Below, piece after piece: positions 35,765-60,358 of a stretch of 64,000 nucleotides of DNA. This stretch comes from Octopus sinensis (taxonomy: Eukaryota): assembly GCF_006345805.1 (NCBI RefSeq), contig NC_043003.1, positions 96,162,001 to 96,226,000 on the forward strand. Reading direction: 5' to 3'. The notes under the pieces are model-generated. The model did no database searches. It worked only from the letters and a program-made list of their open reading frames with translations, and was not told where the DNA came from. Both the position numbers and the translations under genes were made by a program. Every line of letters begins with the position of its first letter. The stretch's first letter is position 1.

Positions 35765-37200
35765 CTAGCAGAGATACCTGGCATTGCTCAGGAGTGAAAT
35801 GGCATATTTGTTTATTCTTATCTTTTACTTGTTTAAAACATTTGACTGTGGTGTTACTGGAGCATTGCCTGTAGTCGAATGAATTGACCCCAAGTACTCC
35901 TCGTTGTAAACAATGTTCCTTGTTTTTCCTTGTGGAGTGCATGCAAAGAGGTTTCTTTTGCTTCTCACTCTTGAGCAGCCAACATACAGTTGTCCATATG
36001 AGAAGCAGGGATCTTCCAAGAGAAGATCAGCCATAGAGAGGGTTTGACCTTGAGATTTGTTAATGGACGTGGCAAAACTGACACAAAGGGGAAATTGCAG
36101 TCTTCTGAATGTAAATGGAATTTCTGTTCCTGATGGAGTAAGAAGAATTCTTGGAATTAAGATGTCATCACCTTTTCTACACCCAGAAAGAATGATAGCC
36201 TCGATAACTTGTGACATCATTTTCTTTATCACCAGTTGTGTTCCATTGCAATGTCTTGGTGGTTCCAGGCTGCAGAGTAGCATTACAGGAGTTCCAACTT
36301 TAAGTGCTAATATGTGAGGAGGTAGTCCAGGAGGCTCCAACGAATTGAGAAATTTGGGAGGATAGTTCACCACTTCATTTTTATCTGGAATTGTATCAAC
36401 AGTCTTGTAAGTGTGAATAGTGCCAGGAAGAGAATGCATTAGCTGTTGATTTATTTTTTTAACAGCAATATTTTTTGGAGCTAATATTTCGCTTTCACAC
36501 AGCTAAATGTGATTTTGGTAGTTTTCTGTGAAGTTGGGAAAGACTTTGTGTTTGAGCTCATCCACAGAATTAACAACAGAGGAAAATAGCTATACTTCCA
36601 TTTCTCCTGCAGCATTGAGAAGCACCTTGCCATCACCAAGTGTCAAAACGTCCTGTGCAAACTTTGCAGACATTTGGTCGCCATGTAACTGAGCTCTCAT
36701 GTTGGTGGTAAGACTGAGGGTCATTACATGATGTCACAGGGTAGAGGACTTTAGGCATGCTTGGACCTCATCTGCTTTAGTGCCTTTCGGAATGACAGGA
36801 AGAGTTTGCCTGAAATCACCTGACAACTGAAGCATTACACCTCCCATTGGAGCCTGGCAGTCTCAGATGTCTTTCAGGGCTCTATCTAATGCTTCCAAAG
36901 CTCCCTTGTGAGCCACAGTGCACTCATCCCAGATGATTAGATGACACCTTTTAAGTACCTGCCCCTGATCTAAGCTTTTGCTGATGTTGCATGAAGGCAT
37001 TTTGGATGCTGCTAAATTGAAAGGGAGTTTAAAAGTCAAGTGTGCTGTCCTACCACAAGGTAACAAAGTAGCTGCAAACCCAGAGGAATCCACAGCTACT
37101 GCAATGTCCTGATACTGCGTAACTTCTGCAAAGAGAAGCTTCATAATAAATGTTTTTCCTGTCCCTCCAGGAGCATCCAGGAAGAAGACTCGTCCCTTGC
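35765..37200 (-). mobile_element. Helitron 3' part: pseudogenised PIF1-type helicase, subterminal hairpin and CTAG end
   Basis: Walker A LDAPGGTGKT, GRTAH, IIWDE, GDFRQTLPV, PPGLPPHILALKVG, CNGT, RLQFPL..INKSQGQT, GQLYVGCSRV, with stops and frameshifts. Hairpin at 35777-35792, CTAG at 35765-35768. Confidence 0.92.
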
Positions 37201-37764
37201 GTTGGTGTACACTGTTAAGAATAGTTCTGTAGGCCTGTAGCTGGTCCAGAAGTGCAATGTGTAATGTGTAATGTATGATAGAGTGTAAGCATCCTGAAAA
37301 AAAAGTTGGACATCAAATGTGGTGTTCAAGAGAGATGACTGCACTGGTATGGTCATGTGATGCATATGGATGAGGACAACTGTGTGAAAAAAGTGTCACA
37401 CTCTAATGGTAGAGGGAACCTGTGGAAGAAGTAGACCCAGGAAGACATGAGATTAGGTGGTGAAGCACGATCTTTGAACATTAGGCCTCACAAAGGCAAT
37501 GACAAATGACCAAGACCTTTGGATATATGCTGTGCTTAAGAAGACCGCCCAAGCCAAGTGAGATCATAGTCATGACCGATGCCAGTGTCATGTAACTGGC
37601 CCGTTAAAAGCACCCTTCAATCATTTGCAATATGCTGTGCTTATGAAGACCTGTCAAACCAAGTGAAATCATCATTATTATGCCACTATTAACCTGATTA
37701 TCCTCATTAAAGCCCTAATTCATAGTATCTACTCTTTTACTTGTTTCAGTCTGTTTGATACCAA

Positions 37765-58052: not shown

Positions 58053-59140
58053 ATATTAGGTGGTTGGCTACAGTACAAGATATAAACCGGTATAATCAAA
58101 AATCATTTTCAAAATATACATTTTGTTCCAATTATATCAAAATTTTTAGTGCATAAAATTGTAAAATATTTTAAAAGAATAAATGATCTATAAACTTTCA
58201 GGCAAGTGAAGGCTTTGAGAATATAAGAAACATTTTCAGTGAACTGGTTGAAATTGCAAATAATCCTGATAATATTATTAAGAATTTGCGGAACCTCAGT
58301 AAGATACTGGTAAGTGGATTTTACAATAAGCATGTATAAGTTTATGATTTATTTTATAATGTCAACATATAAGGCAATACTAGCTGAATAAAAATGTATT
58401 CTAAGTTAATAGTGGAAAGTGCCCATTGTAGAAATCATCATTATCATCATAACCATCATCATCATCATCATCGTTTAACATATGCTTTCCATGCTGGCAA
58501 GGGTTGAACGGTTTGACTGAGGATTGGCGAGCCAGATGGCTGCACCAGATTCCAATCTGATCTGGCAGAGTTTCTACAGCTGGATGCCCTTCCAATGCCA
58601 ACCACTCCAAGAGTGTAGTGGGTGCTTTTACGCGCCACCAGCACAAGGGCCAGTCAGGCAGTACTGGCAGTGGCCATGCTCAAATGGTGATTTTACATGC
58701 CACCTGCACAGGAGCCAGTCCAGCGGCACTGGCAATGATCTCTCTCAAATGTTGTTTTTCATGTGCCACTGGCACAAGTGCCAGTAAAGCGACACTGGTA
58801 ACGATCACGCTCAAATGGTGCTTTTTATGTGCCACCGGAACGGGAAATCAAGAGAAGACAAAGAAGGATATAAGGATGTGTAGCCTCAGAGATGAGATGC
58901 TATACTTTTGAGATGAATGAAAATGTATCGTATTGCAGATGACCTGGCCTAACTCGTGTCTGCATAATCAAAAGCACTATCTAAACATTACTGAAGATGA
59001 CACATGCTTAGAGAATCAAACTGAGTGATTGTATCTATCTACCTGTCTACCTATCTATCTATCTATGTGTATATATATATATATATATATATAGATCAAT
59101 AAATGGTGAGGTTGTGTTGACCGCACGTGGAGAAATGATA

Positions 59141-59511
59141 AGCAATGAAAAATTGTATAAATGCAGAATGCTCGACTGAAAGAAAATTCTAATGAATTGA
59201 GAAAATGAAAAAATATAGAAATATACACAACGAACTCACAATGTATCGGAGTACTTATTTCTTAATTTTGATACATATTACTACTATTAATTTTTATACA
59301 TATTTACTACTATTATTCTTTTGCAAAAAACAATGCAACTTTTTTTCCCCTTTCTCATTTTAAAAAAACCTTTTCACCTAACTATTCTTGATAAGCCAAA
59401 CTATGACGAAAACCGGTTTGAATAAATATATATTCTATATTTTTTCATTTTCTCAATTCATTAGAATTTTCTTTCAGTCAAGCTTCTGCATTTATACAAT
59501 TTTTCATTGCT
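59141..59511. repeat. Inverted repeat (~85-nt arms, 59141-59225 and 59428-59511) enclosing a hammerhead-like motif
   Basis: agcaatgaaaaattgtataaatgcagaa.. versus ..ttctgcatttatacaatttttcattgct. Confidence 0.88.
59383..59424 (+). ncRNA. Type I minimal hammerhead ribozyme-like motif, U3-A8 core variant
   Basis: TATTC-TTGATAA-GCCA-aacta-TGAC-GAAA-ACCGGT-TT-GAATA: 5-bp stem I, 4-bp stem II with one mismatch, palindromic stem III. Confidence 0.62.
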
Positions 59512-59527
59512 ATATATATTATATATA

Positions 59528-59566
<39 letters not shown>

Positions 59567-59611
59567 ATATATATGTATAATATATATAATGTATATATAT
59601 ATAGATATAGT

Positions 59612-59660
<49 letters not shown>

Positions 59661-60358
59661 GTATATATAATATATATATATGTATATGTATATATATGTA
59701 TATATATAGATATATGTATATATATATATATGTATATATGTATATATATATATATGTATATATGTATATATATATATATGTATATATAGCATGTCTATAT
59801 ATATATATATGTATAGATATATAGATATATATATATAATATATTATGTATGAGATATATATATATATGTATATATATATTATAGTATATATATATTATGT
59901 ATATATATATATATGTAATATATATATTGTATATATATATATATGTATATTATATATGGATATATATATATGTTATATATATATATGTTATATATATATA
60001 TATGTATATAATATATATGTATATAATATATATATGTATATATATAGATATGTATATTATGTATATATATATATATATGTATATATATATGTATATATAT
60101 ATATGTATATATATATGTATATATATATATATGTGTATATATAATGTATGTATATATATATGTATATATGTAATATGTATATGTATATATATATATATGT
60201 ATATATGTATATGTATATATATTATATGTATATATATATGTATATATATATGTATATATATTATGGATATATATATGTATATATGTATATATATATGTAT
60301 ATATGTATATATATATGTATATATGTATATCTATATGTATATATGTATATATATATAA

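Follow-up and report, generated by a model that had tools for sequence, protein, structure and literature searches.

Between the two arms of an inverted repeat, the 64,000-nucleotide stretch of Octopus sinensis DNA analysed here (the window) carries a short motif that can be read as a hammerhead ribozyme with U and A at positions 3 and 8 of its core. The locus raises the questions of what brought the motif and the inverted repeat together, and whether an RNA copied from it could cut itself. The parts of the motif, in standard hammerhead numbering, are as follows.

59383-59387, plus strand: stem I, 5' strand TATTC, read directly and supported by covariation
59388-59394, plus strand: core box TTGATAA, that is U3 U4 G5 A6 U7 A8 A9, from direct reading and copy counts
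59395-59407, plus strand: stem-loop II, with GCCA (59395-59398), loop AACTA (59399-59403) and TGAC (59404-59407), read directly
59408-59411, plus strand: core box GAAA, that is G12 A13 A14 A15.1, read directly
59411-59418, plus strand: palindrome AACCGGTT, replacing helix III and predicted to pair RNA with RNA, from direct reading, covariation and dimer folds
59419, plus strand: position 17 (U), with cleavage predicted 3' of this U, from hammerhead numbering
59420-59424, plus strand: stem I, 3' strand GAATA, read directly and supported by covariation

The topology is that of a type-I hammerhead, with U16.1 and U17, and 11 of the 13 canonical core positions hold the canonical base, the exceptions being positions 3 and 8, where U and A can form an isosteric pair. 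Helix II comprises 4-5 bp, with G10.1 placed directly after A9 without an unpaired base between them; G59395 and C59407 make up the G10.1-C11.1 pair, and C59396 produces the one C.A mismatch in stem II of this copy. Since helix III is present solely as a palindrome, it would have to be intermolecular. A preliminary description, made from the letters of the DNA, had placed the stems, the core boxes, the palindrome and the single stem II mismatch at these same coordinates, and had predicted a cut after 59419; our direct reading agrees throughout, and the predicted site is consistent with standard numbering, in which position 17 falls at 59419.

We wrote a descriptor that calls for 5 bp in stem I, either C3-G8 or U3-A8 in the core, 4-6 bp in stem II with no more than one mismatch, the GAAA box, helix III as a palindrome, and H17. 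It matched once in the 64-kb window (both strands) and not at all in 100 dinucleotide shuffles; as the descriptor was composed after the motif had been seen, these counts show only that composition alone does not predict the motif. No second hammerhead candidate in the 64-kb window matches the descriptor or any Rfam hammerhead model. The motif itself also goes unmatched by the Rfam hammerhead families in the window, both at the gathering score and at E <= 10 (651-base search).

The motif lies in the 201-nt spacer between two 85-nt arms (59141-59225 and 59427-59511) that are about 97% complementary with one gap. This arrangement had been recognized in the preliminary description, where the arms were taken to enclose the ribozyme and the motif to be part of a pre-mRNA. 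We used the 371 nt from 59141 to 59511 as a query against the 2.7-Gb genome, obtaining at least 1,095 first-look candidates, of which 40 were scored, giving 91 matches. The scored genomic copies other than the window's match no more of the query than positions 80-371, some of them only a shorter stretch at the 3' end, and every one of them, among the 40 scored candidates, reaches the same 3' end. Many copies are paired in inverted orientation, at distances of 0.5-4.7 kb and with outward-facing ends, and the arms of these pairs range from 85 to about 295 nt around open reading frames (ORFs) with reverse transcriptase (RT) and GIY-YIG parts.

At two such loci, L031 and L033, the open frames between the paired tails carry YLDD (reverse transcriptase) and GIY-YIG motifs and match the Pfam families RVT_1 (4.2e-8) and GIY-YIG (5.7e-5). 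Using the endonuclease part as a genome query, we obtained 23,271 first-look candidates and, from these, 132 scored matches that share 69-100% identity with it; the longest open frames among these 132 reach 782-796 aa. At L122-L124 a motif-bearing tail lies downstream of a 782-aa frame and shares its strand; from the stop codon to the motif is about 640 nt, and the element's 3' end comes 92 nt after the motif. At L123 a second tail stands upstream in direct orientation, 4,613 nt away, and in some full units direct-orientation tails flank the ORF on both sides. We assign the family to the Penelope-like elements (PLEs) because its members together display an ORF that joins RT to a GIY-YIG domain at the C terminus, pseudo-LTRs in direct or inverted orientation, and extensive 5' truncation. 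The copy in the window lacks an ORF, and it is from the structure of these relatives that the window can be read as holding two pieces of one insertion, a 292-nt tail and an inverted 85-nt piece, arranged as follows.

59070-59093, unstranded: (TA)n microsatellite to the left of the composite insertion and its probable target, read directly
59094-59140, minus strand: 47-nt "tail extension", on the inverted arm only, from comparison with full-length units
59141-59225, minus strand: left arm, the final 85 nt of the PLE tail in inverted copy
59220-59511, plus strand: 5'-truncated PLE 3' tail (part of the pseudo-LTR), 292 nt, from matches to query 80-371
59262-59304, plus strand: internal tandem duplication of 25-26 nt, present in only some A-type copies
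59427-59511, plus strand: right arm, the last 85 nt of the tail
59512-59900, unstranded: long (TA)n-rich microsatellite to the right of the insertion (end approximate)

In full-length units the sequence of the 47-nt extension is the 5' start of the unit and stands directly after the upstream tail. It matches at 96-98% after tails at L031, L123 and L124, and it is limited to one arm in all four inverted pairs examined (the window, L031, L033 and L124). No target-site duplication is discernible in the flanking (TA)n. In run X8, the summed contig depth over 59100-59140, within the extension, rises to about 5,700, far above that of the tail, contig depth being a poor measure.

The sections of Craig et al. 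(2021; PMC8557442) drawn on here describe PLEs with an adjoining inverted 5'-truncated copy and with microsatellite targets, a 30-40-bp extension that is often found at one end only, and hammerheads located within the pseudo-LTRs. To the extent of those sections, the octopus family is alike in its 5' truncation, in the partial tandems that form pseudo-LTRs, in the adjacent inverted 5'-truncated copy, in the short extension at a single end and in its (TA)n targets, and unlike in the length of the extension, which is 47 nt here. On these comparisons the inverted repeat is best read as the scar of an insertion, the usual inverted 5'-truncated PLE copy, and not as a device that encloses a ribozyme; the PLE tail had gone unnoticed in the preliminary description.

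Arms of such complementarity might equally be expected of a miniature inverted-repeat DNA transposon, or of a regulatory inverted repeat around a host intronic ribozyme, an explanation to which we attach next to no probability. The relatives share one end only, their variable arms enclose RT/GIY-YIG ORFs, one arm bears the additional 47 nt, the (TA)n flanks reveal no duplicated target, and we found no host exon nearby. A MITE or TIR transposon was rejected as a candidate because the copies have just their 3' end in common and the second arm is a variable inverted copy. Examination of the ORFs of at least 90 aa in the window, which are mostly microsatellite frames and nine of which were run against Pfam, revealed no host gene on the plus strand, so that the proposed placement in a host pre-mRNA finds no support on that strand; the Pfam matches among the nine were confined to two PIF1 helicase pieces, both on the minus strand and 22 kb away. 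These are two open frames at 35825-37312 (minus strand), with a PIF1-like helicase (3.6e-33) and a Pif1 2B domain (1.9e-11), and probably represent a Helitron or PIF1 remnant.

To place the motif within its family, we compared it with other copies. Within subfamily A, to which the window copy belongs, 29 of 32 distinct copies have TTGATAA, and the 5' strand of stem II reads GTCA in 30 copies, GCCA in the window copy and is affected by a deletion in one. The T-to-C change at 59396 is thus private to the window copy, and the T that its relatives have at this position gives a perfect 4-bp stem II. Three contigs of assembled public runs, whose RNA label is a guess, show C>T at 59396. Four of the 24 such runs were compared with the window and yielded short pieces of contig, with no joints and no starts or ends of molecules, results that bear on neither expression nor cleavage. 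Because copies of subfamily A are 84-96% identical, conservation inside it is uninformative. Tails were also fetched downstream of 20 divergent endonuclease matches, two of these tails were used for genome searches, and this yielded four tail subfamilies, with tails 68-86% identical to that of the window.

Subfamily A (window type): stem I UAUUC/GAAUA; core UUGAUAA; stem-loop II GUCA-AACUA-UGAC; after GAAA, ACCGGU-UU
Subfamily B: stem I UAUUC/GAAUA; core UUGACAA; stem-loop II GUCAU-ACA-AUGAC; after GAAA, ACCGGU-U (one U fewer)
Subfamily C: stem I AAUUC/GAAUU; core UUGAAAA; stem-loop II GUCA-CAUUA-UGAC; after GAAA, ACCGGU-UU
Subfamily D: stem I AAAUC/GAUUU; core UUGAAAA; stem-loop II UUUGC-CUU-GCAAU; after GAAA, (A/G)CCGGU-UU

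From 119 distinct copies collected, three were dropped before counting (one spurious match, one truncated inside the motif and one without the GAAA part), and the remaining 116 were aligned (84 distinct rows). Paired cells make up 87.1% of this alignment, compared with 24-52% when the partners are slid, although such cell counts overstate the support, since the events behind them are few: some five double changes, spread over two or three branches. None of 500 shuffles reached the observed pairing or covariation score. Both-sided changes occur at six pairs, of which two belong to stem I (UA to AU at both positions), three to stem II (CG to UA, AU to GC and a CG that was gained) and the sixth to helix III; the helix III cells, which belong to a palindrome, are 90.4% paired. 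The core positions are all at least 90% conserved in the 116 copies, and N7 varies among U, C and A. When a natural copy of subfamily A is set against one of subfamily D, 12 of 20 stem bases differ, compared with 0 of 18 in the core and helix III, and N7 differs as well (Fisher 5e-5). Positions 10.1-11.1 are G-C in 45 of the 84 distinct rows and unpaired in 36, mostly through the U.U of subfamily D. At the level of sequence, this pattern of variation is the one predicted by a hammerhead.

Two smaller features vary among the subfamilies. AATAAA (59421-59426) lies directly 3' of the predicted cut in subfamilies A and B; it is probably no conserved signal, given that C has AATTAA and D has ATTTAT there. 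Older copies of subfamily D (L063-L091) frequently have CCGT, CCAG or CTGG in place of CCGG at the middle of the palindrome, as CpG decay predicts.

Short AU-rich stems and uninformative conservation within subfamily A would come as no surprise in a motif that resembled a hammerhead by chance and was passively carried by a young family of AT-rich repeats. The same holds for the lack of an Rfam hammerhead match at E <= 10 for a representative copy of each subfamily (A-D); scans of these representatives and of the window returned only microsatellite-driven miRNA look-alikes. We nevertheless regard chance as highly improbable, in view of the compensatory changes and the invariant core across subfamilies with tails of just 68-76% identity, the lack of descriptor matches in the shuffles, and the position of the motif, which is the known place of PLE hammerheads in the portions of Cervera and de la Pena (2014; PMC4209133) used here.

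The U3-A8 state of the core could be followed across the genome. Exact whole-genome pattern counts, in which positions 3, 7 and 8 were left free, gave 683 copies, of which 666 have U3 with A8 and none has C3 with G8, and the reversed-pattern controls gave no matches. The combination noted at this one locus in the preliminary description therefore prevails in the genome, rather than C3-G8 or unpaired combinations, and U3/A8 is the fixed state of the family, not random decay. The same description had argued against decay from the compensatory nature of the two changes; the conclusion stands on the counts, although there is no covariation at 3-8 inside this PLE lineage, and the "compensatory" argument therefore rests on comparison with the canonical core. 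Its term "rare" for U3-A8 also needs qualifying, as the core covariation to U3-A8 is reported, in the portions of PMC4209133 used, for Cercyon elements of Schistosoma mansoni, with about 1,300 hits. That paper is the only one we found in the full-text literature to pair hammerheads with U3-A8.

As far as those portions go, minimal hammerheads occur in the flanking repeats of PLEs across metazoans, with helix III reduced to a palindrome such that two motifs must pair; solo motifs derive from truncated PLEs, motif pairs on opposite strands are found 100-700 bp apart, and single motifs are without detectable cleavage, dimers cleaving at a low level. The need for a partner, also anticipated in the preliminary description, is thus what this source leads one to expect, and minimal hammerheads in PLE repeats, including those with U3-A8 cores, are on its account already known since 2014. 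Against this published class, the octopus motif is alike in its type-I topology, in its location in a PLE terminal repeat and on the ORF strand, in its 5-bp helix I, in having no stable helix III and a palindrome at 15.2-16.2, in U3-A8 for C3-G8, in G10.1-C11.1, which three of the four subfamilies (A-C) retain, and in its many solo copies from truncated elements and opposite-strand pairs. It is unlike, again within the portions used, in its helix II of 4-5 bp (6-8 bp published), in lacking the published unpaired base between positions 9 and 10.1, in its palindrome of 8-10 nt, in its host genome and PLE family, and in the G at 17 of one subfamily and the U.U at 10.1-11.1 of another. The finding can accordingly be placed in a known class, the minimal hammerheads of PLE repeats, with the inverted repeat accounted for as an insertion scar.

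The same genome also contains canonical type-I hammerheads. A search with RF00163 placed seven loci above the cut-off among 74 candidates scored (L035-L041, in tandem repeats of about 431 nt). These copies are like the window motif in strand order, in the GAAA box, in a short palindromic helix III and in U at 16.1, but they have CUGAAGA with C3-G8, a GC-rich 5-bp helix II and a 6-bp helix I, and score 34-48 bits, whereas the window motif and its relatives fall below the reporting limit of E <= 10. The canonical C3-G8 motifs, at L035, L038, L039 and L040/L041 (G000 C16, about 25.146 Mb), belong to a different repeat family; two of them lie 431 nt apart in tandem in L040/L041, and L038 has inverted copies. 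As relatives of this PLE the canonical loci were rejected, tblastn with the RT and endonuclease parts having given no match within 1.5 kb of any of them; they resemble non-LTR retrozymes.

Whether the octopus PLE motif could cut was approached through predicted folds and through position 17. Single copies are predicted to fold weakly, at -2.5 to -4.5 kcal/mol, without forming the full hammerhead. Predicted dimers reach -14.1 to -19.5 kcal/mol and are held by AAACCGGUUU; those of the subfamily A-D copies combine the AAACCGGUUU helix with stem II (-16.7 to -19.5 kcal/mol), stem II is not kept in the predicted fold of the window-copy dimer, and stem I is absent from all predicted minimum-energy dimers. 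The insertion in the window holds no partner motif, since the 85-nt arm stops short of it. With neither an ORF nor a second motif, and with its stem II interrupted by a C.A mismatch, this copy is predicted to be inert, and would likely cut itself poorly or not at all.

The window copy and subfamilies A, C and D have U at position 17. Subfamily B, which has one U fewer and so only two U after CCGG, has G at this position in the standard register. Canonical hammerheads are not known to cleave after G. Subfamily B is the most numerous, with 471 exact copies that have UU compared with 199 that have UUU, and of the 23 tails adjoining the longest open frames 20 are B-type and two are C-type, the last being a stretch without a tail. 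Subfamily B tails, for example at L122-L124 and L127-L142, carry ACCGGTTGAAT (two T) and adjoin intact 782-aa frames; a few B-type copies with three T exist. Every integrated copy extends 92 nt past the predicted cut, which suggests that the template RNA was uncut there or religated.

Taken together, we put a probability of roughly 0.8 on the reading that the feature is a 5'-truncated PLE 3' tail standing head-to-head with an inverted 85-base piece, and that the motif is the family's minimal type-I U3-A8 hammerhead, predicted to cleave weakly and only when two copies pair. Under the published PLE model, transcripts running through two tails would bring two motifs together, which would pair through AACCGGUU to form helix III; the paired motifs would cut after U17 and release a unit-length RNA; and the structure seen in the window would result from target-primed reverse transcription into (TA)n, accompanied by 5' truncation and by a further arm in inverted orientation.

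A different reading of the same motif is that its hammerhead-shaped fold is conserved but does not cut, the activity having been lost or never present, and that it serves in RNA dimerisation through AACCGGUU or in recognition by the reverse transcriptase. The G at 17 in subfamily B, which is yet the most numerous subfamily and contributes 20 of the 23 tails adjoining the longest open frames, speaks for this reading, as do the palindrome and core, which are invariant across subfamilies, the predicted dimers held by the palindrome, and the continuation of all copies through the cut site. So does published work, as far as the sections used here extend: PLE minimal hammerheads cut poorly in vitro (PMC4209133), and catalytic mutants of another PLE's hammerhead, cleavage by which required the element's protein, left in vitro insertion unaffected (PMC11167929). 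We nonetheless consider a non-cutting fold unlikely, as the conservation follows exactly the pattern of a catalytic core, with every core base fixed, N7 alone free and an isosteric U3-A8 pair, whereas this would not be required of a site for dimerisation or binding alone, and as U17 is kept in three of the four subfamilies.

On the preferred reading of a weakly cleaving PLE hammerhead, the family offers a clean natural series, in which the same U3-A8 core is found in four stem contexts and an abundant subfamily has G17. This series bears on the purpose of PLE hammerheads, which PMC8557442 and PMC11167929 leave open in the sections drawn on here, the former describing the role of hammerheads in endonuclease-bearing PLEs as still unclear. 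The point of note is that the fold is retained through compensatory changes and that, in the subfamily with the greatest success, the cleavage position is occupied by G. It is tempting to go further and to propose that a U3-A8 fold kept by compensatory evolution in at least four subfamilies, with G17 in the intact-frame subfamily that has multiplied most, is retained for a role other than cleavage, such as RNA pairing via AACCGGUU or docking of the RT, but we hold this proposal to be doubtful.

The coding part of the family shows one further feature. At L124 (G000 C15, 612.5-621.5 kb), the 782-aa RT/endonuclease frame has another open frame, of 499 aa, immediately upstream and overlapping it, which may represent an ORF1, or else an N-terminal extension set apart by a frameshift.
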